Part shown: in pieces, positions 641-29,851 of the stretch
Layout: the number at the start of each line of letters is the position of its first letter
How positions within the stretch are numbered: the stretch's first letter is position 1
Virus record (IMG/VR): IMGVR_UViG_3300031647_000041
Span: 1-29,851 of that record
Length of the DNA: 29,851 bases
Direction: 5' to 3' (one strand)
Source of the DNA: a virus
Taxonomy: Duplodnaviria > Caudoviricetes
Made by a program: the position numbers and the translations under genes
The notes under the pieces: model-generated
The model's database searches: none
What the model was told of the DNA's origin: nothing
Seen by the model: the letters and a program-made list of their open reading frames with translations, nothing else

Positions 641-3049
641 ATGAAAATAAACTATAATGGTAATAGCACGTTTCCGGATCAGGTAGTACCTTTTGAGGAA
701 AAGATGTCTTTAAAATATGGAGCTCAGGTTGCCCAAGCTATACAGTCTGAATGGTTTTCACAAGGAAGAACTAATGGTAACAGATATTTAACTAGTTTTA
801 ATGATTTTCACAATAGAAGATTATATGCTAGAGGAGAACAATCTGTACAAAAATATAAAGACGAATTATCTATCAATGGTGACTTGTCTTATTTAAATTT
901 AGACTGGAAACCAGTACCAATATTGTCAAAATTTGTAGATATATTAGTTAATGGTATTTCAGCTAAAGATTATGATATTAAAGCTTATGCTCAAGACCCA
1001 GAGTCTATTAAAAAAAGAACTGATTACGCTGATGGTTTAGCTAAAGATATGTTTGCTAAACAAATACAAAATAAAGTTAAAGCAGCTACGGGTGTTGATA
1101 TATCTAATACTAATATTCCTGAAGCCGATCTTCCTACGTCAATAGAAGAAATGGAATTACATTTGCAATTGTCTTATAAACAATCTGTAGAAATAGCAGA
1201 GGAAGAGGCTATTAGCCAAGTACTAGCACAAAACAAGTTTGAGTTATTAAAACGTAGAATTAATTTAGATTTAGTAACGTTAGGAATAGCCGCAGCTAAA
1301 ACAAGTTTTAATCCTTCAAACGGTATTACTTTAGATTATGTAGACCCTGCACATTTAATTTATTCATATACAAGCGATCCTAATTTTGAAGACGTATATT
1401 ATGTAGGTGAAGTAAAAGCTTTAACTATTCCAGAAATTTCAAAACTATTTCCTCATATACCTCAAGATGAATTAGCTAATCTACAAAAATATAATAGTAA
1501 TAATAATTATATTTATGGTTACGGCGCATATGATGAAAACACGGTTCAAGTATTATTTTTTGAATACAAAACCTATATGGATCAAGTTTTTAAATTAAAA
1601 CAAACTGATTCAGGTTTAGAAAAAATATTAGAAAAACCAGACACATTTAATCCACCTAAAGCAGATTCGTTTGAAAGAATAAGTAGAAGCATAGAAGTTT
1701 TATTTGAAGGTGTTAAAGTTTTAGGAACTGACACAATGCTAAAATGGGAAATGGCAGAGAATATGACAAGACCTATGGCTGATACTACAAAAGTAGAAAT
1801 GAATTATGCTATATGTTCTCCAAGAATGTACAACGGTAGAATTGAGTCGCTGATAACAAAGACTATGGGATTTGCTGATATGATACAGCTAACTCATTTA
1901 AAACTGCAACAAGTATTATCTAGGATGGTTCCAGATGGGGTATTTTTAGATATGGATGGTTTAGCAGAGGTTGACCTTGGTAATGGTACCAATTACAATC
2001 CAGCAGAAGCTTTAAACATGTATTTTCAAACCGGTTCGGTTGTTGGTAGATCTTTAACTCAAGACGGGGAATTAAATAGAGGAAAGGTTCCTATACAAGA
2101 ATTATCATCATCAGCGGGCCAAGCTAAAATAGGTGCTTTAATAAACACATATAATTATTATTTACAAATGATAAGAGATGTGACTGGTCTTAATGAAGCT
2201 AGAGATGGTAGTTTACCAGACAAAGATACTTTAGTTGGATTACAGAAAATTGCAGCACAACAATCTAACATAGCTACTAAGCATATAAACAACGCTAGTT
2301 TATACCTAAGCTTAAGACTATGTGAAAATGTATCAAAAAAATTAGCTGATGTATTAGACAATCCTTTAACTAGGCAAGCATTAATGTCAAGCATTTCTGT
2401 TTATAATACGCAAACTTTAAATGAAATTAAAAATTTATCATTACATGACTTTGGTATATTTTTAGAACTAGAACCAGACGATGAAGCAAAAGCTCAGTTA
2501 GAGCAAAACATTCAAGTTGCTTTGCAAAGTGGTGGAATTGATTTAGAAGATGCTATAGATTTAAGACAAATAAAAAATCTTAAACTAGCTAATCAAATGC
2601 TTAAACAAAAGCGTAGGTTAAAACAAATAAGAGATCAAAAAGCTCAACAAGCAAATATACAAGCTCAAGCTCAGGCAAACGCTCAACTAGCTGAAAAAAC
2701 AGCTATGGCTGAGGTACAAAAGCAGCAAGTTTTAACAGAGCAAAAAGTTAACGTAGAGCAAGCTAAGTCGCAGTTTGAAATACAAAGAATGCAAACAGAA
2801 GCTTTAATTAAAAAAGAATTAATGGCTGAAGAATTTAATTACAATATACAACTTACAAAAGAGCAAAGACAAACTGAAAAAATAAAAGAACAACAAATAG
2901 AAGATAGAAAAGATAAAAGAGTTAAAATGGAAGGTACTCAACAAAGTGAGATGATACAACAACGTCAAACTGATGGACCGCCTAAAAACTTTGAATCAAG
3001 CAACGATAGCATAGGGTCTTTTGGATTAGAAGCTTTTAGCCCTAGATAA
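641..3049 (+). CDS. Portal protein
   Basis: 802 aa, abuts terL (TAA-ATG), long Q/E/K-rich coiled-coil C-terminus typical of podovirus portal barrels; lies before scaffold and capsid genes. Confidence 0.8.
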   Translation: MKINYNGNSTFPDQVVPFEEKMSLKYGAQVAQAIQSEWFSQGRTNGNRYLTSFNDFHNRRLYARGEQSVQKYKDELSINGDLSYLNLDWKPVPILSKFVDILVNGISAKDYDIKAYAQDPESIKKRTDYADGLAKDMFAKQIQNKVKAATGVDISNTNIPEADLPTSIEEMELHLQLSYKQSVEIAEEEAISQVLAQNKFELLKRRINLDLVTLGIAAAKTSFNPSNGITLDYVDPAHLIYSYTSDPNFEDVYYVGEVKALTIPEISKLFPHIPQDELANLQKYNSNNNYIYGYGAYDENTVQVLFFEYKTYMDQVFKLKQTDSGLEKILEKPDTFNPPKADSFERISRSIEVLFEGVKVLGTDTMLKWEMAENMTRPMADTTKVEMNYAICSPRMYNGRIESLITKTMGFADMIQLTHLKLQQVLSRMVPDGVFLDMDGLAEVDLGNGTNYNPAEALNMYFQTGSVVGRSLTQDGELNRGKVPIQELSSSAGQAKIGALINTYNYYLQMIRDVTGLNEARDGSLPDKDTLVGLQKIAAQQSNIATKHINNASLYLSLRLCENVSKKLADVLDNPLTRQALMSSISVYNTQTLNEIKNLSLHDFGIFLELEPDDEAKAQLEQNIQVALQSGGIDLEDAIDLRQIKNLKLANQMLKQKRRLKQIRDQKAQQANIQAQAQANAQLAEKTAMAEVQKQQVLTEQKVNVEQAKSQFEIQRMQTEALIKKELMAEEFNYNIQLTKEQRQTEKIKEQQIEDRKDKRVKMEGTQQSEMIQQRQTDGPPKNFESSNDSIGSFGLEAFSPR

Positions 3050-3073: not shown

Positions 3074-4318
3074 ATGTCAGAAGAAACAAAAACAAATGAA
3101 CCTGTTAAACAGGAAGGTGACTTTAAATTAACACCAAAGAAAAAAATGCCTAAAAAATTAGGTAGTATTAACAACGATCCGATTAAAGTAGATTTAACAA
3201 AACCGGAGGCAACAGGTGAAATAGTACCTGATGTTATAAAGGTTACAATACCTAAAGAAGACGATGCCATTCCAAAGCAAGAAACAGGAAAATTACCTGA
3301 AGATCAACGAACCGGAGATATACAAAAGGTGGATGAACAAGTACGGCCCAGCGAAAATGTGGAAGTACAAGAATCCAAGCCAGAAGATTCTATCGTTGAA
3401 ATCGAAGAAATAACAGAAGAAGAAAAAACAGAGGTTAAAGAAATTAAACAAGAAATTGCAGAAGCTCAAAGAGACGAGCAAATCCTTGGTAAAGCTTTAC
3501 CTGAAAATATAGAAAAACTAGTAACCTTTATGGAGGATACTGGTGGAACAGTAGAAGATTACGTAAGATTAAATCATGACTATAATAAAACTGATGATGT
3601 TACCTTACTTAATGAATACTATAAACAAACAAAACCTCATTTAGATGGAGAAGAAATTGCTTTTTTATTAGAAGACAATTTTCATTTTGACGAAGAGGTT
3701 GATGAAGCTAGAGAAGTAAGAAAGAAAAAACTAGCTTTTAAAGAAGAAGTTGCAAAAGCCCGTAAAGAGTTGGATGTTCTTAAAGATAAATATTACCAGG
3801 AAATCAAGTTGAGACCTGGTGTATCTCAAGAACAAAAAAAGGCTACGGATTTTTTCAACCGATACAATGAGCAACAAGTGACGATGGAAACCAACCATCA
3901 GGATTTTAAAACAAAAACTAATCAATTGTTTAACGACGAATTTCAAGGGTTTGATTTCGACTTAGGGCAAAAAAAGTTTAGATATAAAGTTTCTAATCCT
4001 AAACAAATTGGTGAAACACAAGGTGATATTAGTAAATTTATAAGTAAATATACTAATGACAAAGGTGTTGTCACTGATACAAAAGGTTATCACAAATCGT
4101 TATATGCTGCTATGAATGCTGATAAAATTGCTAATCATTTTTATGAACAGGGTAAAGCTGATGGTGTAAAAACCATTGTCAACGGTTCTAGAAATATCAC
4201 AAATGAAAAGCCACGGCAGGTTGCCGACGGAAACGTTTTCGTAAACGGATTAAAAGTAAAATCAATTAGTGGATTGGATTCATCAAAATTAAAAATAAAA
4301 ACAAGAAAATTTAACTAA
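3074..4318 (+). CDS. Putative capsid scaffolding/assembly protein
   Basis: 414 aa, very acidic low-complexity N-half, helical C-half with basic tail (KLKIKTRKFN); between portal and capsid. Confidence 0.6.
   Translation: MSEETKTNEPVKQEGDFKLTPKKKMPKKLGSINNDPIKVDLTKPEATGEIVPDVIKVTIPKEDDAIPKQETGKLPEDQRTGDIQKVDEQVRPSENVEVQESKPEDSIVEIEEITEEEKTEVKEIKQEIAEAQRDEQILGKALPENIEKLVTFMEDTGGTVEDYVRLNHDYNKTDDVTLLNEYYKQTKPHLDGEEIAFLLEDNFHFDEEVDEAREVRKKKLAFKEEVAKARKELDVLKDKYYQEIKLRPGVSQEQKKATDFFNRYNEQQVTMETNHQDFKTKTNQLFNDEFQGFDFDLGQKKFRYKVSNPKQIGETQGDISKFISKYTNDKGVVTDTKGYHKSLYAAMNADKIANHFYEQGKADGVKTIVNGSRNITNEKPRQVADGNVFVNGLKVKSISGLDSSKLKIKTRKFN
3264..3413 (+). CDS. Nested 49-aa basic protein in the +1 frame of the scaffold gene (MPFQSKKQENYLKINEPEIYKRWMNKYG...)
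   Basis: Hand-translated, ATG 3264 to TAA 3411-3413. Resembles a recurrent small phage protein pattern MPFxSxKQxxYLxxNEPEIxKRW (recalled, not searched). Host-frame codons here are atypical (CGA, CGG, CCC, ACC). Confidence 0.65.
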   Translation: MPFQSKKQENYLKINEPEIYKRWMNKYGPAKMWKYKNPSQKILSLKSKK

Positions 4319-4338: not shown

Positions 4339-5826
4339 ATGGCTTTAAGTCCACAGTTTGGGAGTATTATACCTTCACAAGCTCAATCAATTCTTGCTAG
4401 CAATTACCTTCAATTTGATGGTGCTGGTGCGAATTCAAATAACTTTGCTCAACAATTTCTACCGGAATTGTATGAACAAGAAGTAGAAAGATATGGTAAC
4501 AGAACGTTATCAGGATTTTTACGTATGGTAGGCGCTGAAATGCCTATGACTTCAGATCAGGTTATATGGTCTGAACAAAACAGATTACATATTGCATACA
4601 ACAACTGTACGTCTGCATCTGCTGCTGGAACAATTACTATTCCTGTAACCGCTGCAAATGCTGCTAACCCTATTGTAAATGTAATATCTCCAGGATCAAC
4701 TATCGTTGTAATGGATGACTTTGGAAACGAAGCAAAATGTTTTGTTAGAATATCTGACACAGCCTTAGCTGGTGGTGGTGGTAACCCAGGACAGTTAACT
4801 GTAGAGCCTTATGGTTTTGCTAACTTAGTTGCTGCTGGAATTGCTGATGGTGCTTCTAAGAAAATATTTGTTTATGGTTCTCAATTTCAAAAAGGAACAT
4901 CAACTGGTAATGCTCCTGTAGGTGCTAACACTTATGCGGCTGTTAATAATCCGCAAGTAACAGTTACTCCTTCTTTTACTCAATTCTCTAACTCTCCTAT
5001 TATCCTTAGAAGTACTTATACTATCAACGGTTCTGACACAGCTCAGATCGGTTGGGTAGAAGTTTCTACTGAAGATGGTACTGGAGGTTATTTATGGTAC
5101 TTAAAAGCTGAGTCTGAAACTAGACTTAGATTTGAAGATTACTTAGAGATGGCTATGGTAGAAGGTGAATTAACTGCTGGTGGACCTGCTGCATTAACTG
5201 GTCAATCACTAGGTATGCAAGGTTTGTTCGCTGCTATTCAAGCAAGAGGAAATGTGCAAGTAGGCTTTAGTGCTGCTGCTGGTTTAGATTCTTTTGATGC
5301 TATTCTAAAAAATCTTGATACTCAGGGAGCTATTGAAGAAAACATGCTTTTCTTAAATAGATCTTCGAATCTTGATTTTGATGACATGCTAGGATCTATA
5401 TCTGGAGGATTCTCTGGAGGAACTGCTTTCGGTTTATTTGAAAATTCAGAAGAAATGGCTTTAAATCTTGGTTTCTCAGGATTTAGAAGAGGTTCTTATG
5501 ACTTTTACAAAACAGACTGGAAATACTTAAATGATGCTTCTACAAGGGGTGCTCAAGTTGGACCTGCTTCAATTGAAGGAGTTTTAATACCAGCTGGTAC
5601 TACAACTGTATATGATCAGATTTTAGGTACTAATATCAGAAGACCATTTTTACACGTTCGTTATAGAGCTTCTCAGACTGACGACAGAAGAATGAAATCT
5701 TGGTTAACTGGTTCAGTAGGTGGTGCTTTCACTTCGTCTTTAGATGCGATGGAAGTTAACTTCTTATCTGAAAGATGTTTAGTAACTCAAGCTGCTAATA
5801 ACTTTGTATTATTCAAAGGATTATAA
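4339..5826 (+). CDS. Major capsid protein
   Basis: 495 aa, G/A-rich, strongly biased codon use (GCT, GGT, TCT, TTC, AAC), follows the scaffold gene and is followed by a terminator. Confidence 0.8.
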   Translation: MALSPQFGSIIPSQAQSILASNYLQFDGAGANSNNFAQQFLPELYEQEVERYGNRTLSGFLRMVGAEMPMTSDQVIWSEQNRLHIAYNNCTSASAAGTITIPVTAANAANPIVNVISPGSTIVVMDDFGNEAKCFVRISDTALAGGGGNPGQLTVEPYGFANLVAAGIADGASKKIFVYGSQFQKGTSTGNAPVGANTYAAVNNPQVTVTPSFTQFSNSPIILRSTYTINGSDTAQIGWVEVSTEDGTGGYLWYLKAESETRLRFEDYLEMAMVEGELTAGGPAALTGQSLGMQGLFAAIQARGNVQVGFSAAAGLDSFDAILKNLDTQGAIEENMLFLNRSSNLDFDDMLGSISGGFSGGTAFGLFENSEEMALNLGFSGFRRGSYDFYKTDWKYLNDASTRGAQVGPASIEGVLIPAGTTTVYDQILGTNIRRPFLHVRYRASQTDDRRMKSWLTGSVGGAFTSSLDAMEVNFLSERCLVTQAANNFVLFKGL

Positions 5827-8807: not shown

Positions 8808-11800
8808 ATGGCTGAAGTTAAAAATGCTTTTATAAAGTCCAAGATGAATAAAGACCTGGATGACAGGTTGATACCATCTGGAGAGTATCGCGATGCACAG
8901 AATATTCAGATAAGTAGATCAGAAGGTTCAGATGTAGGAGCATTAGAGAACGTATTAGGTAATAAAGAAATATTATTTTCTTCTGCACAGTCAAGTTTTT
9001 CTACACTTGTAGGAGCACCTAATATAAAATGCATTGGTCAATTTGTAGACGAAAACAATACAACTATATATAGCTTTTGGACTGACAATTTTGACACCCA
9101 AGCTAGTAGTAGAATAATATATAATTCCGCGGCTAAAAACTATATACTTGCTTACAGCACAAACGGTAGTGATAACTACAAGGTATTAGTGGAAGGTGCT
9201 TTTTTAAATTTCTCTCAAACAAATCCTATAATAGGTGTTAACGTGATAGAAGGTCTTTTGTTTTGGACAGATGATAGAAATCAACCAAGAAAAATAAATG
9301 TTAACTTAGCTAATCCATCTTCAAACCCTTCAAACACTTATGCTGTACCAACTTATTATACAGTAGAAGATTCTATATCTGTATCTAAATACAACCCATA
9401 CGAACCAATACAAGTTTTAAATGTTAGTTCTTTAGCAGCAGCAGACGTTGCAACGGCCAATGTTAACGGTGCTGTTGATAATTCAAAAACTATTGTAATT
9501 GATGGTATCACTGGAACAATTGCTTTAGGGTTAGGTGTGTCAGGAACAGATGTAAAAAGTGGAACTATAGTAAATAAAATAAATAGTGCAACTAGTTTTA
9601 ACACTAACAAAGCTAATACTATTGCTAATGATACTATTTTAACACTAAGAGGTTTAGAAACTACAATGTATGATGTTAGCTCTGCTAAACTACCAGATGG
9701 AACTACAGATAATCCTTACGAACAAGCTGATTATGGTGGTGATCCACAGTTTTTAGAAGATAAATTTATAAGATTTAGTTATAGATTTAGATTTGATGAT
9801 GGTGAATATTCTATATTTGCACCATTTACACAGCCAATGTTTATTCCTAAACAAGATGGTTATTTTCAAGGCGACGATGAAAAGCTTGCTTATGAAAGTA
9901 CTATTGTAGAATTTATGGAAAACAAAGTAACTAAAATAGACTTGTTAATACCTCTTCCCTCTACAAGACTAGCTTTACAAACAATAAATACATCTGCATT
10001 TAAAATTCTTGAAATTGATATTCTATATAAAGAATCTGATGGGCAAGCTATAAGAGTTGTAGATACTGTTAAGGTAGAAAACCAAGCCCCTTGGAGCGAC
10101 AGCCCTGCTGATAATGTATTTATTTATTCTTACGAATCTACAAAACCTTATAAAACTTTACCTACAGCTGATTTAATTAGAGTATACGATAGAGTTCCTG
10201 TTAGAGCTAAAGCTCAAGAGCTTGTTAGCAATAGAATAGTTTATGGAAACTTTCAAGACAAGCATACGCCACCTGCGGCTTTAGATTATCAAGTAGGTGT
10301 TTCAGATAAGTCAGCAGATAATGTAGCCACCGGTAGTCAAACTAGAACTGAATATCCTAACCATACTGTAAAACAAAATCGTAATTATCAAGTTGGTATT
10401 GTTTTATCAGATAAATTTGGTAGACAATCATCCACTATCTTATCTAATAGTACAGCGCCTTTAGCTTTAAATCAATTTGGTGCTGACACTGTTTATAGTC
10501 CTTACAGGTGTGATCCTACAGTGGCGGGTTGTGGAGATTCAACTGCTCCAACTTGGCCAGGCGATTCTTTAAAAGTATTGTTTAATGAAACAATAAACAG
10601 TAACTCACCTGCTGTAGCTAATAGAAGTTTAGGTACACCAGGGCTTTATAATGGAGATACAGCAAACGCTGCTTACAATCCTTTAGGTTGGTTTTCCTAT
10701 AAAATAGTAGTTAAGCAACAAGAGCAAGAATATTACAACGTGTACTTACCGGGTATTATGAAAGGTAATCCTGACGGTACTGAGACCGGAGGTCAATTAT
10801 CTAATATAGTTTTAATAAATGATAATATAAATAAAGTTCCTAGAGATCTTACAGAGGTAGGTCCTCAGCAACAACAGTTTAGAAGTTCAGTTCAATTGTT
10901 TGGTAGAGTTCAAAACGATACTGTAGCTACATCGGTAACTGGAAATGAACAAGTTTTTCCAGGTAGATTATCCGACACAGTAAGTACAATATCTGTAGTA
11001 AGACAGTTGTTTGATGTTGCAATTCCAATTGTTCCTGCTGTACCTATATTTGGTTTTTATAATGCTAAATCAAATCCTTTGATTGGTCAAGTAATAACTA
11101 GCCAAGCTCTTGGTATGGTTAACACTATAGCGTCAGGTTCTTACCCTGTATTAGAAAACTTAGCGGTTGTTGAAACAGAACCCGATGTATCTAGATTAGA
11201 TATTTACTGGGAAACTTCTACAGCTGGATTAGTTAGTGAATTAAATACAGCGGTGGCAACTGATACAGGAGGAGCTCAAGCAACCTCAGGGTTTACACTT
11301 GCTTTAAATGAAGGTATGGTTACAGATACAGCAGTTGCCGGACCTTTTTTTGGTATAGATGTTATAGGAGCTAGGCTAAGTAATGCAAGAATAAAGACTG
11401 CTTATGCTGACAACGAATGGTCTGTAACAAATGGAGCTGGTACAGATGTAACCGCAAGCTTTGTTTTAATAGAGACAGGTGATGGAACTGCTGGCTCAAA
11501 ATTTGGATATACTTTAAAAACTGTTGGTACTTTTTATTATGGTCTTAATGCTGCAACTACAGGAAATTTTTCTTTTAGTTTTACTTATAGACTATGGAAC
11601 ACTGCATCAACTCCACCAGCTTACTTTGATAATGCTTTTACAATACCACCGGTAATGTCTGGTTTATTAGGAAACGAACCACCAACTATAACTGGAACGT
11701 GCCCTAGATCTATACAAGTAACCACTGATGATTTGCCTACAATAGCAACATTGGTTGGTAAAAACGGATCCGCAGACACATCTAGAGATACAGATGATTT

Positions 11801-12968
11801 AACCTGGACAATTACGTCTCAATCACAAAACGGTAGCGCTGTAAGCATTTTTACAATGACTACTACAAATAATCAAGGCGTTATAACTGCATCCACTGGA
11901 GCAGCGGCTTATATTGTTGTGGCTAGAGTAACTGACGCAGGTGGTAAAACAACCGACTGTACTTTAAACATAACAATAGGTCAACCAGAAGTTCCTAGTA
12001 GATTTAAAATACCTTTTATAGCACCATTATTTGATGGTGATGGAACTAGGTATTATTTTGCAAATAATTACACTAACTTAGATCAAATAACAAGTGCTAT
12101 TTCTCAGTCTTTTGCTTGGATAACACCAAGTATAAATCCTTTAGTAAGCCCTGCCACGTCTAATTCAACAGACTATTGCAGTGTGCCAGGTCCCGGTTCT
12201 CCTGGTAATGGAAATTATGTATTTTTAAGAGAAAAAATATCTGCTGGTTTAGGCGCAGGTGAGGGAGCTTTCTATGTGCAGTTTTTTGCTAACGCACCAG
12301 CAACAACACCATCAACTACATCACAAACCTTTAATCCTGTTTCAGCGGTGGTAGAGTATAGAGTAAATTCTTCAGCTAACTGGATTATTGCTCAGACGGT
12401 TGATAATAGTTTACTTCAAACAAGTAATAATATTTCTAATACTAAAGCACAATACAATGGTGCGGTTTCGGGTGTGCCAACAGGAGAAGGAGGACTTACT
12501 GGTATAGGTGGAAACAATAATGAAATGACTTTATCCGGCACAACAGGTGGAACATCTGGTGTTAAGAGAGTATTTGCTTTTGATATACCAGGTGAATATA
12601 GAATAACAATGGGTGCTTTAAACGGGCAGGTTTGTAACTACGCAGATTGTACGCTTACAAAAAACATGTCTGCATCTCAAGGTTTTACAACTGGTGATTA
12701 CAGTTATGCTGGTGGTGTAAGTACGCCGCAGCAATATCAATACAATGTAGGTGGAACTACATATTATGCTAAAGAACATATAACTAAATATGTAACTCAA
12801 TTTTATACAGACTTGGCTTTAACTACAAAAGCTACTATTACTGCAGGAAATTATAATTTCTTTAGACCTAATGTTAACTGGGAGTATACTAAAAATGGAT
12901 CATACACTGCAGACTTTAGTTCATCTGCAAAAAGAACTTCAGTGTCCGCTTTAGTTACATATCCATAG
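8808..12968 (+). CDS. Tail nozzle/stabilisation protein, N-terminal part, with a C-terminal beta-rich (Ig-like/adhesin-like) extension
   Basis: 1386 aa; KMNKDLDDRL..GEYRDAQNI start, LLFWTDDRNQPRKIN, IRFSYRFRFDDGEYS and RIVYGNF motifs recalled from crAss-like stabilisation proteins; last ~560 aa T/S/G-rich. Confidence 0.65.
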   Translation: MAEVKNAFIKSKMNKDLDDRLIPSGEYRDAQNIQISRSEGSDVGALENVLGNKEILFSSAQSSFSTLVGAPNIKCIGQFVDENNTTIYSFWTDNFDTQASSRIIYNSAAKNYILAYSTNGSDNYKVLVEGAFLNFSQTNPIIGVNVIEGLLFWTDDRNQPRKINVNLANPSSNPSNTYAVPTYYTVEDSISVSKYNPYEPIQVLNVSSLAAADVATANVNGAVDNSKTIVIDGITGTIALGLGVSGTDVKSGTIVNKINSATSFNTNKANTIANDTILTLRGLETTMYDVSSAKLPDGTTDNPYEQADYGGDPQFLEDKFIRFSYRFRFDDGEYSIFAPFTQPMFIPKQDGYFQGDDEKLAYESTIVEFMENKVTKIDLLIPLPSTRLALQTINTSAFKILEIDILYKESDGQAIRVVDTVKVENQAPWSDSPADNVFIYSYESTKPYKTLPTADLIRVYDRVPVRAKAQELVSNRIVYGNFQDKHTPPAALDYQVGVSDKSADNVATGSQTRTEYPNHTVKQNRNYQVGIVLSDKFGRQSSTILSNSTAPLALNQFGADTVYSPYRCDPTVAGCGDSTAPTWPGDSLKVLFNETINSNSPAVANRSLGTPGLYNGDTANAAYNPLGWFSYKIVVKQQEQEYYNVYLPGIMKGNPDGTETGGQLSNIVLINDNINKVPRDLTEVGPQQQQFRSSVQLFGRVQNDTVATSVTGNEQVFPGRLSDTVSTISVVRQLFDVAIPIVPAVPIFGFYNAKSNPLIGQVITSQALGMVNTIASGSYPVLENLAVVETEPDVSRLDIYWETSTAGLVSELNTAVATDTGGAQATSGFTLALNEGMVTDTAVAGPFFGIDVIGARLSNARIKTAYADNEWSVTNGAGTDVTASFVLIETGDGTAGSKFGYTLKTVGTFYYGLNAATTGNFSFSFTYRLWNTASTPPAYFDNAFTIPPVMSGLLGNEPPTITGTCPRSIQVTTDDLPTIATLVGKNGSADTSRDTDDLTWTITSQSQNGSAVSIFTMTTTNNQGVITASTGAAAYIVVARVTDAGGKTTDCTLNITIGQPEVPSRFKIPFIAPLFDGDGTRYYFANNYTNLDQITSAISQSFAWITPSINPLVSPATSNSTDYCSVPGPGSPGNGNYVFLREKISAGLGAGEGAFYVQFFANAPATTPSTTSQTFNPVSAVVEYRVNSSANWIIAQTVDNSLLQTSNNISNTKAQYNGAVSGVPTGEGGLTGIGGNNNEMTLSGTTGGTSGVKRVFAFDIPGEYRITMGALNGQVCNYADCTLTKNMSASQGFTTGDYSYAGGVSTPQQYQYNVGGTTYYAKEHITKYVTQFYTDLALTTKATITAGNYNFFRPNVNWEYTKNGSYTADFSSSAKRTSVSALVTYP

Positions 12969-12998: not shown

Positions 12999-14486
12999 AT
13001 GGGAGCTATTATAGAGGTAAAATACTTTAATTCTTTTCTTTTGAAAAAGACTTACAACAAAGCAGTTGGTATTGCAGCGCCTAAATGGAATGGATCATTT
13101 GGTGTTCCGTTAGGTGTAGCAGGTCATTACCCTGTTTTTACAGCAAGCGACACTGAAGCTACGGATAGTTGGGCTATAGAAGAATCTAGAATAAGAGGTG
13201 GATACAACAATACAAACATAGACTACGGAGTAAAAGCTTATTTAGTAGAAGATGAACCTAATTCTTCTATAAGATTTAATTCTATGATTTATTCTGGAAT
13301 TTTTAATTCAAGAACTGGTATAAACAATACTAATGAATTCTCTGTAGGTACAGATATAACTAAATCAACAGATCCTATCAATGGATCTATACAAAAACTA
13401 TATGCTGAAGATACGGCGTTACTTATATTTCAACAAGACAAAGTTAGTAGAGCTCCAATAGATAAAGATGTTATATACAATGCTGAAGGTGGTGGGAGTT
13501 TAACCGCATCTAATATGGTTATAGGTGATATAATACCTTATGCAGGTGAATATGGAATGAGTAATAATCCTGAAAGCTTTGCCGTATATGGGTACAGAAA
13601 ATACTTTACAGATAAAAATAGAAATGCTGTTTTAAGACTGTCTAGAGATGGTATAACAGAAATCTCTCAATATGGTATGATTGATTACTTTAGAGATCAA
13701 TTTGGTACCTTAAACACACCTACGTTTGGTAAAGGAAAAGCAATAGGAGCTTATGACATATACAACAAACAATATGTATTATCTTTACAACAAAGTCCTG
13801 TCGCTGACAATGGAGATATTAATCCAAGTCCGTTAACAGCTACAATAACTTTTGATGAAAGAGTTTTGGGTTGGACTAGTTTTTTCTCTTACACACCAGA
13901 TCAAACTCTTAGTTTACAAAACAATTACTACAGTTTTAAAACTCTTCCTGTTACTAATGCAGCAGGTGAAATTACAGGTTATACAAACGGTGGATTTTAT
14001 CAACACTACGATATTTCTCAAAATAGAAATACATTTTATTCTACAGCCTATGACTCGTCTATAAAGTTTGTATTTAATCCCGCGGTAAGTGCATCTAAAG
14101 TATTTAAAACAGTTAACTACGAAGGTGGAAATGGATGGGAGATAAGTAAATTTGAAGCTGCAAGATCTTTTGAACTAGTTGATTCATGTAAACCAGTGTT
14201 AAGCTATAATGACGGTGCTTATGATTCTGCTACACCACCTAAGACAGGTGCAGCGGCAACAACACAACCAATATTTTATGCAGGCTTTGTTAAAAAAGAA
14301 GGCAAATATTTTGCTAACTTAATTAACTCAAGTTCTGCAACGGCAGGTGAAATTATCTTTGGTGCATCAATGACTGGTGTTAAAGGTTATTTTGCAACTG
14401 TCACAATAGAATCAGACACAACATCTAGGATTAAACCTATGGAGTTGTTTGCTGTTTCATCTGACTACGTAGAGTCATCATATTAA
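12999..14486 (+). CDS. Tail nozzle/stabilisation protein, C-terminal part
   Basis: 495 aa; GSIQKL, YAGEYGMSNNPESFA, YFTDKNRNAVLRLSRDG, GWTSFFSY, KVFKTVNYEG and KKEGKYFA beta-propeller-type motifs. Confidence 0.65.
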   Translation: MGAIIEVKYFNSFLLKKTYNKAVGIAAPKWNGSFGVPLGVAGHYPVFTASDTEATDSWAIEESRIRGGYNNTNIDYGVKAYLVEDEPNSSIRFNSMIYSGIFNSRTGINNTNEFSVGTDITKSTDPINGSIQKLYAEDTALLIFQQDKVSRAPIDKDVIYNAEGGGSLTASNMVIGDIIPYAGEYGMSNNPESFAVYGYRKYFTDKNRNAVLRLSRDGITEISQYGMIDYFRDQFGTLNTPTFGKGKAIGAYDIYNKQYVLSLQQSPVADNGDINPSPLTATITFDERVLGWTSFFSYTPDQTLSLQNNYYSFKTLPVTNAAGEITGYTNGGFYQHYDISQNRNTFYSTAYDSSIKFVFNPAVSASKVFKTVNYEGGNGWEISKFEAARSFELVDSCKPVLSYNDGAYDSATPPKTGAAATTQPIFYAGFVKKEGKYFANLINSSSATAGEIIFGASMTGVKGYFATVTIESDTTSRIKPMELFAVSSDYVESSY

Positions 14487-17541: not shown

Positions 17542-20500
17542 ATGGAAGTATATATACTCAATGGAGTAGAAATAACTCTAGAAGACTTACAGGGTTTAGT
17601 GGAAAAGTCGGGCTATAGTTTAGAAGATTTTAAAGCTATTAATGGTGTAACAGTAAAGAAAAAGGATGTTGCGGATCAGGGTGCGACTGTAACATCCAAA
17701 GATACCGAAGCATCTTGGGAATCACGATTGGAAAATACCAGATCGGATTGGGAAAAATATCGTAAAAGTCAACTTCTAAATAAAGAAGGTAAGTATGATC
17801 CTAATTTACAAACAGACCCTAACCACAGGATGCCTGATGGAAGTCAAAACTATATAAACAAACGAAACGAATTTACTATTAAAGAAAGAGAATTAAATGA
17901 TAAAATTGAGGGGTATTATTTAGACCCTAAAAATATGGATTTTAATAAGCCTAAAACAATTTTAAATCAAGGCGAGGATACTGTAAAAGAATATATAAGA
18001 GAAAAATTTCCATTTTATAATGTTGAGGATGGCACAGCAGGTAATTTACTTAAAATACAAACAGCAGAGGGTTTTAAAGAAATAGATTTAAACCCTTTGT
18101 TTAGTGATAATAAAAAAGAAGCTATAGAAACTATAAAATATTTAGAGCAAGCTGCTAAAGATATTGAAGATGATGTGGTTGTAGGTTTAGTCATGAATAA
18201 ATTAGCTGATAATATTAAAGACACTGGTGATGTTAGCTCTGTTAATACTTATTTAAAAGACAATACTCCTTATCAGATTGAAAAAACAATAGTACCTGGC
18301 AAAACCTCTACTGGATTACAAGGTGTTTCTACACCAGACACTACTATGTATAACATAGTAAAAGATGGTGAAATAATTAGTTCTTTACCTATAGATAAAG
18401 TTGATGATTTTTTAAGAGATAATATAACTCAAGAAGAATTCAACAGCATGAATACAACTTCTGTTAAAGCTTTAGAAACTGTAACTGGAATGAGAAGAGC
18501 TTATATTGAGCAACAGCAGGATATTGTAGAGGTAAAACCTGCTACTAAAATTAAATATTATAAAGATGATTTTGGAACAGATGTTTTAAAGGTTCTTGAT
18601 AGGTTAAATTTTACAGACGAAGAAAAACAAACTGTAGAAAAATATATAGCTAACACTCAAAGTCAGAAAGGTGAAATGCAGCTTGCTACCGCACCTGGTA
18701 TGGCCCGTAGACAAGGCGCATCACCATATCAAATAATACAAGAGCTTACAGCTTTAGATGGTTTACCAGACGATTTAAAAGAAAAATTAATAAACGCTGG
18801 ATTTATTGATGAAATGAAAACCGTTGTAGATGCAGGGATAAAAAACACTGCTTTTAAAGAAGTTAACAAAGGTATACCCACTATGCTAGAAGACATGTTA
18901 ACTCAATTTGATAAAGGTGAATTACTGGACTTAGCTAATTATTTTAATGAAAATATAGCTGGAGCTGAAAAAGATGAAGAAGGAAATATAATTAAAGGAG
19001 AGTTTGTTAAAAAAATTAATGTAGATAACTTAGATTTAGATGGTAGTATTAAAGATCAAATAAAAATAGGTGGTGATATTTCTGATACTAATAAATTTAT
19101 AATTAAAAGATCTTATCAGAAAAAAGAAAAAGAAGCTATAAAAGCTTATGAAGATTTTTATCCTGCTAAAATGGATTCACTAACAAAAGAAGTAATATCT
19201 TTAGGTGAGCAATTACCTGAAGATGCTTATATCTATACAGCTAACACGCCTAGTGGACCATTGTTAAGAATAAAAATTGACAGAAAAGTTTCAGCTTCTG
19301 AAAATGAAACTATAAAAAATATAAGTGGAAAACTTGCTGGCATACAAAGTACATATCACAACTTAGAGTTTGATAGAAAAAATTCTGCTGATAAAATAAT
19401 AAACAATCGCAACGCATTCTATGATCAATTACAAGATGCAGAAAAAAATGATGATATAATTGCCACTGCTAATAAAGAATTTGGATTAGGTAATTTATTA
19501 GTTAAAGATATTAACGATGCTTTCTCTAGTCTTGCATTGACAGTTCCCACATTATTTAATTCTGAATGGGCTATAGGTAAACAAAAGCAATTAAACGATA
19601 AGAACGATTATTATAAAACAATGACTGAGCCTGAATTTAGTGCTGAGTATATTCTTAGAACTTTAGGGCAACAGTCGGCAAACATTACATTAGCAGTAGC
19701 TACGGCGGGAGCTGGATCTGCTTTAGGATTAACAACAGCAACGGTAGCCAATACAATAGGTATAGGTTTTGGTGCTGTGTCAGGAACGCAAACTTTCAGA
19801 GATTTAAACATAGAAGTTGACACATACGAAGAAGCGGAGAGGCAAGAGAAAATATACAAGGCTGCTTATAAAAGAGGTGAAATTAGTGAGTATAATTATA
19901 CTATGGCCATGAGAGATATAAACACTACTCTGGCTATGGACAAGTTAACTCCTGACCAAATAATGAATGCATCTCTTTCCAACGCAATAATAGAAGGTAC
20001 ACTTACTAGATATTTAGGTACAGCTGCTAACTCTATAGCTTTAGTAAAAAACTTTAATAGCGTAAACGTAGGTGAAATTGCCAAACAATTAAACAAAAGC
20101 GGTTTTACCAAAGGAATAAATTTAATAGGTAGACCTTTAGTAGGTAGAACTGGTCTGGAGACTGTAGAGGAATTAGGTATTTTTGCTGGTCAAAACTTTA
20201 TAACTGATACGGCTATACTAGGTAGAGGTGCAGACAGAGAAACATTTTTAAAAGGTGCTAATGAAACTTTTTGGGCAACTGTAGTTACAGCTGGTATGTC
20301 TCAGTCAACAGGTATAACATACGGTGGAATGAATTCCTATGGTATTACAAAAAAGTATGAAAAGATTTTAAATGGAAGTAATTTTTTTTTAAATGATTTA
20401 TCTAGTTCTATACAATCTCTTTCAGATTCTAAATCAGATCAAGAAGTAAAAAAATTACTTTTATTTCAATATCAAGAAGAGTTAAAAGCTATGGGCTTGA

Positions 20501-23500
20501 CTATTGATGAAAACTCTATAGATCTTTTAAACATTAGTAATGAAAACACAGACGGATCATCTGATTTAAAAAACTTAATAGGTACTCAATTAATAAAACA
20601 AGATTATTTGAGGAGTTTAGGTATACAACCAGGTACTAATGCTCAACAAGATTCAGCTATAGAAGCTTTAAAAGATAATTCAAGCGAACAACAAAAAAAA
20701 GATATAGAAACAACCTTAAGTAGTTTAGATACTCAAATAAACAATATAAAAGAAAAAGCGTCTAAGGCTTCTAATTATGATGTTGCTAAAAAAGCTTTAG
20801 GAAGTATTTACACTTTTTATGACAATCAATTAAAAGGTGATACTGAATATGATGCAGCTTCTACAAAAAATAAACTTGTTAAAATAATTAACAATGTAAG
20901 AGAAGATACTCGTTTGCAAAATATTAAAAATGCCAAGTCAAATCCTTTTGTTGTTAAACAAGTGGAGTCTATGTACGCTGGTCCTGGTTTTGCAAGCAAT
21001 AAAACTAAAGATACAACTTACGAAAACCTAGGAGCAAACATGGCTTTGAATCAAGGTAGAGCTTATAGTACTAGTTTAAACGTAAACATACAAGCTAGTA
21101 CAATATTTGGTAAAGATTTAAAATCAGTTAATGTTGTAGGTTACGAAAATGATGAGCAAATTGGTAAAGAACTAGAAAAAGCAGGTTTAACACCTGAGGA
21201 AATCGTTACTGCTATTGATAAAATAAAAAATAATAAAGCTTTTGGTTTAGTTTTTGGAAAAACTATATTTACTCAAAGCCCTGATTTAGCTAATGAAAAT
21301 TTAGACAACGGAGAAATACAAGCAGGAACTGTTATACTACATGAGCTTACGCATATTACTAAAGATGCTGACATGAAATCTCCTGAATCAAAAAAGAAAT
21401 ATTTTGATAATCTATTTCTAGCTGCTTCAACAAGTAGCAATCAAGCATTAGTAAGTATACATCAACAAACTGTTGGATTATTAGGAAATAAAACAGAAGA
21501 AAACAAAGCTAAATGGGAGGATGAATATAGTAATATTTTACAAGAACAACTTTATTATTATGAAAAAGAAGTACAACTAGAAAAAGATGATAGTTTTATT
21601 ACAAAAATATTTGGTAGAGCAAATCCAGCTAATTTAAATACTCCTGAAAAAGCTTTAGATTATTTAGCGGCTAGTAATTCTGCTTTTAGAAAAGGTAAAA
21701 TATCTAACGCTACTCAAAAATCTGTCGAAAGTTTTGAAGGTAGTAACTTAAAAGGATCTGTAAAAAATATAAACAAATTAGTAATAGGTAAAACTTATGA
21801 TCAATTAAAAAATGATCCAGAATTTAGAAGGCAATACGATAATGTTGCGGTAAAAGCAATGAAGTTTGACCAGGAGTTAGGAAATGAAATAAACAGAAAA
21901 ACAGTTCTTGGAGAGGCTTACATACAACTTCCAAGTATTATAAAAAACTACAAACCAGTAAACGAAAAAGGCGAATCACAAACTTTTACTAACTATGTTT
22001 ATCAAACTTTAGATCCGCAAAAAAGAACAGCTGCATTTTATAGAAAAGAGCTTGGTGAAATACCAACTCAAAAAATTGGTAAGATGCAATTGATAGGCGA
22101 TGAAGACGCTGATGCTAATATCAAAAGAGAAGCTAGGGAAAAACTAGAGGGCAAAGGTAAATCATTAATAAAAACAAATGAACTGCGTGGTGTTAAAAAT
22201 AAACTAACAGAAGTAGACGAAGCTATAGGTGATATTGACCGAATAGAATTTGCTAATCTTTTAGATAGTAGATCTGGTGAATTAGATTTTGCAAAAATAA
22301 ATGAAGAATATGGTAGCGAAGTTGCAGGTGCACTTTATGGTTTAAACCCTAAGGATGCTATAAATTTAGCTAAAAAATTTAAAAAAGGTGCTGACTTAAC
22401 TTACGGACAAAACAAAAGAGAAAAAGGAAGTAAATTAATTTCAGAAGCAGAAAGAATACAAAGCGATTATACTAGTATTCAAGATGCAAAAGAAATGATT
22501 TCTTTGTTTCCTGAATATAACATAAGCACACCAACAGCTGTTACCTCTAAAACAGGTCAAGAAACAAAAACAAGTGAACTTGTACAGGGTAGATCATTAG
22601 GAACTGCACCAGCTGTATTAGATTTTTTCTATGAACCTTATACAGATCCTAAGTCTTTAAATAAAAAAACTAAAAAAGATGCTATAACAAATCCTTCAGG
22701 AAGATCTAAAGGTAAAACAAGTCAAGTAAATGTTGTAAGATTAAAACCAGAGTTTAATTATAAAGCTGGAAGTATTACTAATGCCGCTGTTGTTAGGGCA
22801 CAAAGAAAAATAGGTATTACAAAATCAGGTAAACTTAACGTACCGCCTAAAGGCAAAGCAAGAACAGACTTTGGTAGACTACTTATAGGTCTTGCGAACC
22901 TTAAAGGAGCTATAGTAGCAAACACAGCTGTTGATACAAAGGTGAAAAAAGGTATTAAAGATGGTACAATAAAAACCGCTAAGTCTGCATTGCAAATAGA
23001 AGCAGATTTAAAAGCTGGTAGAAGTAGAATACAATATAGCGAAAAGTTAAAACAAGGTAAACAAACTATAGATGCAGTATATGATTTTGCTAGAAATAAA
23101 GAAGCTGCAAAATTATTTGGCCCGGTGTTTTTAACTTTTTTTAACGCTAATGTTAATGCTGACGCTGGATTCAGGGGTGTAATTTATAATCCTATCTCAG
23201 GGATAGAAGAGTCAAGTAAAGGTGCTTTTAATACTGGTAGAAGTTTTATATCATCACTTAAAAAGCTTAGGTTTAAATATGGTAAAAGTAATCCAGAAAT
23301 AGTAGCTGCTACCGAAAGTTTAATAGCTGAAGGAAAACTAGGTGTACTAGAAGACGTTCTTAAAATAGCTCAAAAAACATTAAACGAGGTTGCTGTTGAT
23401 GCAAAACCTTCCGATAAGGATGTTGAAAACAATAACGCTATGAGAATGGCGATGGCTCCTCAAGATTATACTAAATATAAAAACTCTAATAAAAAGAATT

Positions 23501-26500
23501 TAAAAACTCTTAAAAAAGGAAAAAAATTAATATTGTCTAAGTTTAAAGAGTTGTATGATTCAAATAATAAGTTGCTTCCTCTTATACAATACGTAACTTA
23601 TGCGGTTAATTCTAATTCTCACCCATTTAGAAATTTAGCAATATTAGAAGGTGGGGTTGAATATGGCTATGAAGAACACATGCTGCAATATAAGCCTTTT
23701 GTAGATACTTTTATAGCCGCAATAAAATCAACTAAAACAGATTTTGATGGCTTTATTGAATGGGCTAATGATACTTATTTTCAAGAATCTATTACTAAAC
23801 AAAATTTAAAGGGAGAGGCTAATGGCATGGCGCAGTCTGTATTAGATCAAGCATCAAGAAATATAAATAGATTTACCAATGAAATAATAACACCTTGGCG
23901 TTCTCAATTTGAGATGCACCCTTTAATGAAAAAGCAAGTTAAAGAAGCATTGGAAGGTAAAAGAAAATGGGAGGATGTTATAAGTGTTGATATAAGAAAA
24001 TATAATGAATACAATTATAAATCTGATTATGGTTTAATAAATCCTAACGTTCAATCAAGGTTTGGTATTACAGATGCTCAAAAATATAATGTGGTTGTTC
24101 CGTCACAATTTAAATTTGATCCTACAATTATTGCCGTACAAAACAAAGCTATTTACGAGTACTTACTAGGTAATATTAGTAAGGCAGAAGCTATGGTAAA
24201 AGTACAGCTTGAAGTTAATAAAACTTTTAAACCTAATGCAACTGTAGTTATAGCTAAAAATAACAAAGCTGACAAAGCTATGGCTGACGCTAGAAATAGT
24301 ATTAAATATAATGAAAAAAGAAAAGGTATTAGTGTGTTTGATTTTGATGACACGCTTGCTCAGTCTAATAGTAACGTATTATATACAATGCCTGATGGAA
24401 CAACAGGTTCTCTTACGGCAGGTGAATTTGCTGTAAAAGCTTTAGATTTAACTAACTTAGGTGCTAAGTTTGATTTTAGTGAGTTTAACGAGGTTAAAGA
24501 AGGTAGAAAAGGTCCACTAGCAGATGTTGCTTTAAAAAGACAAGGTAAATTTGGTAGCAAAGATATATTTGTGTTAACAGCCAGACCTCAAGCCGCAGAC
24601 ATAAACATTAAAAAGTTTTTAGAAGAAATTGGTTTAAATATACCTTTAGAAAATATAACTGGTTTAGAAAACGGCACCGCTGAGGCTAAAGCCGAATGGA
24701 TGATAGGTAAATATGCTGATGGATATAACGATTTTTATTTTGCTGATGATGCTTTTAAAAACGTTGAAGCTGTTAGAAATGTATTTGATGTATTGGATGT
24801 CAAGTCTGACGTACAACAAGCAAGACTTAAGTTTAGTGAAAAACTAGATAAAGACTTTAACGACATGATTGAAAGAAACATGGGTGTTAAGTCAGAATAT
24901 ACTTACTCAGATATTTTAGCAAGGCGAAAAGGTAGAAATCAAAAACGATTTGCATTTTTTATACCTCCTTCAGCTGATGACTTTAGAGGCTTAACCATGT
25001 ACACATTTGCTGGCAAAGGTAAGCAAGGTGAATTAGATCAAGAGTTTTTTGACAAAGCTTTAATTAAGCCTTACATGAGTGGAATAAACGCTATGGAATT
25101 AGCAAAAAATAAGATTAAAAATGCTTATAAAATTTTAGAAAAAACTAGTCCTAAAGTTAGAAAAAAATTAAAGAAAAAAATTGGTGACACTAAGTATACT
25201 AACGACGAAGCTATAAGAATTTATCTATGGAATAAGGACGGGGCAATAATACCTGGACTATCTAAAACAGATCAAAATCAAGTAGTAAAATTAGTGGAAG
25301 CAGACGTAGATTTAATGGCTTTTGCTGAAGGTGTTAAACTAATTACAGAAAAAGATACTTATGTTCCACCTAATGAATACTGGGATGGTACTACTATTAT
25401 AGGTGACTTAAGTAGATTGTCTAAAGAAATTAATAGAGATGAGTACTTAAAAGAGTTTAAAGACAATGCTGATATATTATTCACTGATAAAAACATGAAT
25501 AAAATAGAGGCTGTGTATGGTTTTAGGGTAAGAGAAGCTTTAGAAAACTCTTTATATAGAATGAAGACTGGTAGCAATAAAGCCGCTGGATCAGGTAGAA
25601 TAGTAACAGCTTGGAACAACTGGGTTAATAACTCTGTTGGTGCTATCATGTTCTTTAACAGAAGATCTGCATTGCTACAAATGTTATCTGCTGGTAACTT
25701 TGTTAACTGGTCAGACAACAATCCTTTAAAAGCTGGTTTAGCATTTGCTAACGCGCCTCAATACTGGAAAGATGTTGTATACTTATTTAATTCACCTAAA
25801 CTAAAAGCTAGAAGACAAGGCTTAGAAGGTGACATACAAGAAAAAGAAATAGCTGAAGCTTCAAGAAGAGGCGGTATGGAAGGTGCATTATCTTATTTAT
25901 TAAAAATAGGTTTTACCCCTACACAAATTGCAGATAGTATAGCAATATCTACTGGTGGTGCTTCGTTTTACAGAAATAGAATTAATACTTATAAGAAAGA
26001 AGGTTATACAGTTGAAGATGCAGAGAAAAAAGCTTTTGATGATTTCTCAGCTATATCAGATGAAACACAGCAATCGGCTGACCCTATGTTAATATCCTCT
26101 CAGCAAGCAGGTGTGTTAGGTAGGTTAGTATTATCTTTCCAAAATACTCCGATGCAGTACACTAGGTTAATGAAAAAAGCTGGTCAAGATCTTATAAACA
26201 ATAGAGGTGATGCTAAAACAAATATATCTAAAATATTATACTACGGATTTATTCAGAATTTAATATTCTCTACATTACAAAATGCTATGTTTGCTTTAGT
26301 ACCTGGGTTTGAAGACGATGAAGAAGAACCTGATTTCAAAACAGACAAAGAAAGAGATGCTTGGTTAAAGAAACAAGGTGGTAAAGAAAGCGCTAAAATA
26401 ACTAGAGTTGCAAATAACATGCTAGATACTATTTTAAGAGGTTCTGGTTTGGCTGGAGCAGTTGTATCTACTATCAAGAATGTTATTATAGAATACACTG

Positions 26501-29443: not shown

Positions 29444-29851
29444 TTATCCATCGCATGCAAGACAATCTTCATCCATAGCGGAATCAGCTATGTCTCCACG
29501 TAACACTGACTCAGTCCGAGTATAGTATAAGGTTTTAATACCTTTTTTCCAAGCTTCAAAATGAACTTTATTAATCCACTTAGGTGTGACTACACTAGGA
29601 AAAGCTAAGTTTAAACTAACGCTTTGATCTATATATTGTTGTCGTATACCTGCTTGATTTATTAATTCTAATTGATTAATTTCTTTAAACGTTTTAAAAA
29701 CGTCATAAACTGGTATCTGATCGCATGGTCCAGTCATCATTCCTTTTAACTGTTTAAGTCCTTGAACAGAACCACCATCTTTTAAAATCTTAGCCCATAC
29801 TTCTTCAGTATTGATTTTGTGTTTGCGAAGGAGTTTAACCAAGGTGGGATT
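29444..29851 (-). CDS. nrdA: Ribonucleotide reductase large (alpha) subunit, C-terminal part (5'-truncated by window)
   Basis: RQQYIDQSVSLNL, AWKKGIKTLYYTR (tandem Tyr of class I RNR) and terminal CLACDG (CxxC); frame open to the window edge. Confidence 0.93.
   Translation of the reverse strand, partial: NPTLVKLLRKHKINTEEVWAKILKDGGSVQGLKQLKGMMTGPCDQIPVYDVFKTFKEINQLELINQAGIRQQYIDQSVSLNLAFPSVVTPKWINKVHFEAWKKGIKTLYYTRTESVLRGDIADSAMDEDCLACDG

Follow-up and report, generated by a model that had tools for sequence, protein, structure and literature searches.

A basic peptide gene almost certainly nested in the +1 frame of a putative scaffold gene of marine tailed phages

Introduction

In tailed phages, most known cases of nested genes come from lysis cassettes. 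The embedded spanins Rz/Rz1 of phage lambda resemble the locus described here in that a fully embedded, out-of-frame gene occurs in a tailed phage and has non-embedded versions elsewhere. In phiX174, gene D encodes the external scaffolding protein. The likeness to phiX174 is that of a small shifted-frame gene, E, lying inside a capsid-assembly gene; according to the accessible part of PMC8227390, D is the ancestral frame and E arose de novo. The same text gives the distribution (Keese–Gibbs) criterion, by which the widely spread frame of an overlapping pair is ancestral and the de novo frame is the narrower one.

Two further systems are relevant to small proteins of the phage head. The internal proteins of T4 (IPI–III) are small, basic and dispensable, are loaded by an N-terminal signal that heads very different proteins, and carry this signal as a cleaved propeptide of 10–19 residues, as described in the available portion of PMC9026906. 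In crAss001, the 91 kDa cargo protein C1 has a small domain through which it attaches to the portal (PMC10172136, in the section available).

Here we describe a predicted 49-residue basic peptide from the window, by which we mean the whole 29.9 kb virus record analysed (46% complete), and compare it with these systems. Our search of the open literature, with subscription papers and supplements outside its scope, found no description of a nested MPF peptide; a single motif match, in the accessible text of PMC12919940, was unrelated.

Results

Genomic setting of the host gene

The window carries terminase, portal, host and 495-aa protein genes, followed by crassvirus muzzle families. The host gene (3074..4318, + strand; 414 aa) lies downstream of the portal protein gene (phrog_6547; 641..3049, +) and upstream of a gene for a 495-aa virion structural protein (phrog_13704; 4339..5826, +), which by size and position is the putative major capsid protein; its predicted model has a pLDDT of 50 and did not confirm a capsid fold. 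The N-terminal part of the host protein (3074-3496, +) is variable and charged and carries the overlap, and the remainder (3497-4318, +) forms a conserved body. The preliminary description had called this gene a scaffold. Its place between the portal and putative major capsid genes agrees with that name, but no PHROG, Pfam or PDB match backs it, and we regard the gene as a likely scaffold by position only. An Elemovirus homologue is annotated ‘structural protein’.

Among cultured phages, the closest host-gene homologues are in Flavobacterium elemo phages and Maribacter phage Panino; these, and one uncultured podovirus record, share 31–33% identity with the window's gene in the C-terminal part, so that a flavobacterial host is likely. 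Elemo phages lie outside the coverage of the accessible part of PMC7077304. The window stretch occurs in 20 marine runs of 15 studies. Elsewhere in the window, two consecutive genes (8808-12968 and 12999-14486) both match the muzzle-like family phrog_14478 (N-terminal part and positions 919-1216), and the Pfam muzzle and muzzle C-terminal domains are likewise split over them. A 3188-aa protein (17542-27108) has a polynucleotide-kinase-like segment at residues 2256-2443 and contains no nested MPF copy, and the C-terminal part of a ribonucleotide reductase large subunit is encoded at 29444-29842 (−).

A +1 reading frame conserved in position, start and sequence

The ORF at 3264..3413 (+) runs from ATG to TAA in the +1 frame, lies wholly inside ORF 3074-4318 and covers host residues 64–114; its 49-aa translation is exactly the peptide quoted in the preliminary description. 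That description had also noted a basic peptide within an acidic region and rare host-frame codons, and both observations held. The peptide has 13 K+R and 3 D+E, and the host frame over the same bases has 6 K+R and 15 D+E. The code itself accounts for part of this contrast, since AAG/AAA in the +1 frame corresponds to GAA/AAA in the host frame, and the contrast is therefore weak evidence for a partnership between the two products. Codon use was compared in 36 dereplicated host genes, 28 of them with the nested ORF. In the overlap, GCC makes up 64% of host-frame alanine codons vs 11% outside, GTG stands at 32% vs 6%, and GC3 is 0.34 vs 0.21.

ORF length was set aside as evidence, since 38 of 801 other +1 runs in host genes are open for at least 37 codons and 28 other ATG-started +1 ORFs of at least 35 aa occur in the 36 host genes. 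Open +1 frames of this size are thus not unusual here, and it is comparison between relatives that carries the argument.

In the viral contigs scanned, at least 598 relatives of the host gene were found, and the analysis used the best 80 (48–88% identity). An ATG-Pro ORF of 37–52 codons stands at the same place in 68 of these 80, as the proposal of a conserved start and open frame had required; one more (L063) has the ORF with an indel behind it, and it is missing from 11. Once dereplicated at 80% identity, the set numbers 36 genes, the window included, and 28 of these have the ORF. At the nested start the host frame reads D/N-A-I/V in all 28 dereplicated copies, as had been predicted, and is written GAT or AAT, then GCC, in every one of them. 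ATG-Pro itself is found in 124/124 AT-rich nested copies. What exceeds chance is the conservation of position, start, sequence family and substitution pattern; length alone is at chance level.

Recognisable decayed remnants of the ORF are present in L008, L069 and L072, and no trace was seen at the site in L033, L038 and L042. In five others (L043, L047, L052, L053 and L057), an ATG and some 40 open +1 codons persist at this position, but what they encode does not resemble the family; these are either decayed copies or a replacement gene. In five records without the nested ORF, themselves only 11–62% complete, no copy was found elsewhere in the record. In a quick tree, losses and peptide subtypes are scattered, and L007, the sister of the window, has another subtype; this suggests that the nested peptide has been repeatedly lost and swapped between relatives.

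In 7 of the 80 scaffold homologues (L030-L032, L044, L062 at 3347-3466, L065 and L078), the nested ORF is succeeded by another one in +1, which encodes 39 aa with a KKKYxRK tail; the window lacks it. Two of four such ORFs tested gave weak DUF7230 matches under the cut-off.

Substitutions point to constraint on both frames

Substitutions were counted in 24 disjoint close pairs (host identity 70–97%), chosen with a peptide identity filter of at least 60% that somewhat favours the result. In the 28 core codons, changes at host codon positions 1/2/3 numbered 92/35/25, compared with 160/90/261 and 96/49/184 in the two flanks. The core differs from the flanks with p 1e-17, a value that, like all our p-values, is overstated because the sequences are related and not independent. 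The ratio of synonymous to non-synonymous changes in the pairs was 85:45 in the +1 frame vs 16:119 in the host frame. Within the window's clade (seven close relatives, no peptide-identity filter), 10 of 16 core variants were +1-synonymous, where 13% would be expected over all changes and 25% over transitions, and 14 of the 16 change the host protein. In the tail (3348..3413), 4 of 12 variants were synonymous in +1, which is no clear selection signal. These counts show purifying selection on the nested +1 frame.

The host frame, too, is kept open across the overlap. The codon for Phe3 before Lys is TTC in 103/103 AT-rich nested copies and TTT, which would create a host-frame stop in a nested copy, in 43 of 58 free or fused copies. 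Only 6 of 53 AT-rich free copies have an open frame in the register equivalent to that of the host, and of 22 fused copies 0 have one. In 40 of the 53 free copies the other shifted frame is open. The register in use is thus not the easier of the two, but reading in this register gives an acidic linker.

A candidate internal initiation region

Part of the preliminary argument was an A-rich tract before the ATG. In the window this tract is only moderately A-rich, with A at −3 and −6 but not at −12/−13. The segment 3243..3263 (+) is a likely internal initiation region of Bacteroidetes type, unstructured and without a Shine-Dalgarno sequence. In Flavobacterium, A at −3 is a positive determinant of initiation and low structure takes the place of a Shine-Dalgarno sequence, as reported in the accessible part of PMC6847099. 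Adenine occupies −3 at 27 of 28 nested starts vs 30 of 106 other +1 ATGs in the same linker, and at 67/67 scaffold and capsid starts; its share among 596 other +1 ATGs is 35%. Both −3 and −13 are A at 23 of the 28 nested starts vs 9 of the 106 other linker ATGs, and the folding energy is −1.1 around nested starts vs −4.6 around other +1 ATGs. No conserved slippery site was seen upstream of the nested ATG in the relatives, and the window has no long A run. From one RNA run, a single contig spans 3181-3336 (depth 3.7), though a contig is no demonstration of transcription.

Taken together, these comparisons indicate that the nested +1 gene is almost certainly real, and it is one that gene callers miss.

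Stand-alone, fused and nested members of one peptide family

The existence of free-standing homologues had been put forward in the preliminary description. A profile built from 31 nested peptides bears it out, recovering 1039 called proteins of 20–91 aa among 1916 candidates, and 4041 cluster representatives. Fifteen of the 31 nested peptides match phrog_1375 (best E 5e-6), a family with stand-alone members in cultured phages; the library entry gives neither a function nor a hint of nesting. The window's own subtype differs in that its 49-aa peptide had no direct match in PHROGs, Pfam or the word index, and its membership is by way of the profile, in which it is included. It has all invariant columns of the M-P-F-x-S-x-x-Q...P...W core, which spans codons 1–28 (3264..3347, +) with M1, P2, F3, S5, Q8, P17 and W23, and is followed by a variable Lys-rich tail and the stop (3348..3413, +).

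Among the best 150 of the 4041 representatives, the module begins at residue 1 in 137 and after a short extension in 11, with one variant start and one internal module. Their lengths run from 40 to 1163 aa, and 50 exceed 150 aa; only 4 of 85 long carriers of the module had a Pfam match, and the cargo is putative. Stand-alone copies are present in 023Pt_psg01, FlowerPower and, with a divergent start, Barnyard. Intact stand-alone members also lie unannotated in the GenBank records of S-CBS2, C75C1 and P-RSP2 (L167:6001, L169:6001, L170:6001). The family occurs across phages of Actinobacteria, cyanobacteria and Bacteroidetes-type hosts.

Copy sets were ranked by likeness to the query and are no census. 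The 80 loci closest to the window peptide hold 81 copies, 41 nested in scaffold homologues, 4 in giant ORFs, 14 free, 20 heading proteins of at least 100 aa and 2 in frame-broken scaffolds. A query with another subtype yielded 80 viral loci, where 46 copies were free, 8 fused and 26 nested, the last comprising 7 in scaffold-sized hosts, 17 in giant hosts and 2 likely mis-calls. The giant proteins are a second nesting host, with +1 copies in mid-gene of proteins of 1000–2800 aa, three of them with a DarB-like match; carriers are L088, L106, L110 and L112 together with the 17 loci of the second search. The family is thus large, widespread and hitherto nameless, and takes three forms: free, fused to long proteins and nested in two unrelated hosts.

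Two apparent forms were rejected. Nesting in a terminase gene (L186 and L188, of which L186 was inspected) was read as a start mis-call in GC-rich DNA. L063, on the same contig as L144, is not a true peptide–scaffold fusion: its scaffold gene starts further upstream, and the core is followed by an indel.

Genome contigs contributed 77 loci, and some copies there adjoin phage terminase, portal or capsid genes. About 21 of the 77 hits form an Acidobacteria subfamily with a longer loop (L283-L324). Its neighbours at the 16 loci scanned include non-phage genes (Ku, a sulfatase, glycoside hydrolases), and in L297, L303 and L313 the peptide lies upstream of a similar-sized gene, which is Ku in L297.

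By language-model features the nearest named cluster is DUF3008 (PF11450), at 0.85, with 158 of 256 features and 37% of members. The DUF3008 HMM gave no match over the cut-off for the window or 14 family peptides, and the link is a lead only.

Predicted structure and genomic neighbours

AlphaFold2 predicts, within 3264..3347 (+), a helix at residues 6–15, a turn at Pro17 and a helix at 17–27, with pLDDT 84–94 over residues 1–30 and an uncertain tail of low model confidence. In BFVD, every fold match was to an unnamed or uncharacterised protein and missed the E 0.001 level, and the PDB gave no named fold (best VIA, Z 3.3); these nulls do not show a new fold. PDB sequence matches to designed beta-propellers were discarded as summed repeats of 3–4 bits. 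A complex prediction of the portal (1–665) with the peptide (1–34) scored 0.00 and is uninformative either way. No transmembrane segment was found, the highest 19-residue hydropathy being −0.82 in the window peptide and 0.35 over 69 nested copies, and the nested copies carry a net charge of +8 to +18.

An SPAKM-like motif is present in 24 of 69 nested tails and is not common to other window proteins (2 chance matches in 18 proteins). In 10 of the 69 nested copies the peptide is of a subtype with two cysteines, one per predicted helix (L050, L054, L060, L075, L029 and L058 among them). The pair may form a disulfide, which would be consistent with the hairpin model.

The neighbours of the peptide were tallied at 44 hand-picked loci, with no null and with virion genes being the easiest to annotate. 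The peptide lies beside terminase, portal, protease, scaffold or capsid genes at 18 loci, tail genes at 9, another virion protein at 1, GroES at 1 and other genes at 4, and 11 loci gave no match, so that virion genes mark 28 of the 33 annotated loci. Fused forms follow portal or minor head genes.

T4-type prohead proteases cut at sites of the pattern [VIL]xE[SAG]. This pattern, chosen after looking, occurs just behind the module in 13 of 96 extended proteins vs 27 of 809 later windows, and is absent from the window peptide. A T4-type prohead protease (Peptidase_S77) was found in 1 of 5 records tested.

Discussion

The nested frame is probably the older

The preliminary description spoke of overprinting, which implies a peptide arising de novo on a scaffold gene. 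In that sense the term is not supported, because the peptide family is spread far wider than the overlap, the reverse of the narrower distribution expected of a de novo frame. Three cultured distant relatives of the host gene lack the overlap. Since the peptide occurs in unrelated phages and the overlap is absent from distant relatives, the nested frame is likely the older and the host linker secondary, so that, on sequence grounds, the ordinary genealogy of overprinting would be reversed. An upstream shift of the host start cannot explain the nesting, because the peptide also lies in mid-gene of unrelated giant proteins. The simplest reading is that an acidic linker under weak constraint took in an older peptide gene, which was then recoded so that the host frame stayed open.

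This sets the locus apart from phiX174, where the host frame is the ancestral one (PMC8227390, accessible part); phiX174 E is moreover a membrane lysis protein, whereas the window peptide is predicted to be soluble and basic. Unlike Rz/Rz1, the window peptide has no lipoprotein or membrane features and lies outside a lysis cassette, and its family nests in two unrelated hosts and is often lost. Nested phage genes as such are known; the likely reversed genealogy, the two unrelated hosts and the stand-alone and fused family are new.

What the peptide may do

From its neighbours and architecture we infer, with a confidence a little short of even, that the product is an accessory peptide of the head interior, docking through its N-terminal hairpin in the procapsid or on DNA. 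Translation would begin on the late head mRNA at its inner ATG, and the first 28 residues would fold into a small helical hairpin behind the N-terminal Pro. The docking site of the hairpin would be the core, the portal or the inner shell of the procapsid, or else the incoming DNA, and the Lys-rich tail would neutralise DNA or an acidic core protein. At the head of a longer protein, the module would serve as a loading tag, like the T4 capsid-targeting sequence; that it leads off very different proteins, standing at residue 1 in 137 of the best 150 representatives, agrees with such targeting. The resemblance to T4 is one of architecture, and encapsidation of the MPF peptide is putative. The T4 signal is a short cleaved propeptide (PMC9026906, available portion), whereas here the module is a 28-residue predicted hairpin that is often the whole protein. 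The muzzle families in the window suggest a head–tail architecture related to that of crAss001, but no sequence match to solved chains was found beyond repeat-summed chance matches, and C1 is far larger at 91 kDa.

Against an internal-head role stand the 11 of 80 relatives without the ORF and the Acidobacteria subfamily with its non-phage neighbours, the latter unexplained by a purely capsid-bound role. A universal target, such as nucleic acid or a host machine, also fits conservation across phages of unrelated hosts better than one capsid protein does. Chiefly because of the Acidobacteria subfamily and this conservation across unrelated capsids, the main rival is a cytoplasmic binder, a late non-structural effector acting on nucleic acid or ribosomes in the cell and borrowing the strong late head transcript. 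It would also accommodate the DUF3008 lead and the second nested basic ORF of seven relatives, which may be ArfA-like; the four second ORFs tested had no ArfA match, however, and neither the window nor the 14 family peptides matched DUF3008 in Pfam. Given also the predominance of virion genes among annotated neighbours and the fused forms that follow portal genes, we consider this effector unlikely. Distinctly less probable again is a helper in DNA packaging or portal assembly that would work while the head fills and would not stay in the particle: the modelled basic helical hairpin and the free copies directly beside terminase or portal genes in many unrelated phages would suit it, but it does not explain fusion to unrelated proteins of 100–1500 aa or nesting in giant virion-type genes, and the tail neighbours at 9 of 44 loci and the losses among relatives tell against it.

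The remaining alternatives carry very little weight. Ribosomal frameshifting into +1, giving a shortened scaffold isoform of 63 residues with a basic tail, would draw on the A-rich runs before the ATG in many relatives and on two joined sequences, P0200 (scaffold N-terminus joined to peptide) and L063 (peptide joined to scaffold body). These joins are single sequences best read as indels, and the invariant ATG-Pro, the module at residue 1 of most representatives and the want of a conserved slippery site or long A run make frameshifting highly improbable. Slightly fainter still are the chances of a nested lysis accessory like phiX174 E or Rz1, which the nested architecture and FlowerPower gp48, placed between a peptidase and a holin, might suggest: the copies are strongly basic without a transmembrane segment, the window peptide has no Cys and hence no lipobox, and the window endolysin lies 24 kb away. 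An untranslated relic or by-product of host-frame composition is just as improbable. Open +1 frames this long are common in host genes and three relatives hold decayed copies, but the +1-synonymous and host non-synonymous excess, seen also within the window's clade, the conserved start context and the homology to annotated stand-alone genes all oppose it.

Returning to the internal-head reading, it can be extended to a bolder one, possible though on the unlikely side. The 28-residue MPF hairpin would be a portable capsid-loading module common to tailed phages of unrelated hosts, serving as core peptide or cargo tag. Its gene would travel as a cassette already recoded for two frames and enter the acidic linkers of essential virion genes. 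Such capture, an overprinting in reverse, would have taken place in two or more unrelated host genes and would lie in thousands of records to which gene callers give a single protein.

The locus suggests that head and giant virion genes of common marine phages conceal an old, very common and unstudied gene, whose natural series of gain, swap and loss are available for study. It also exposes an annotation blind spot, in which a recurring D-A-I-Q motif in host proteins would be the shadow of another gene. If it is true that the module brings proteins into capsids, it would be a targeting tag independent of that of T4, testable in cultured FlowerPower or S-CBS2.
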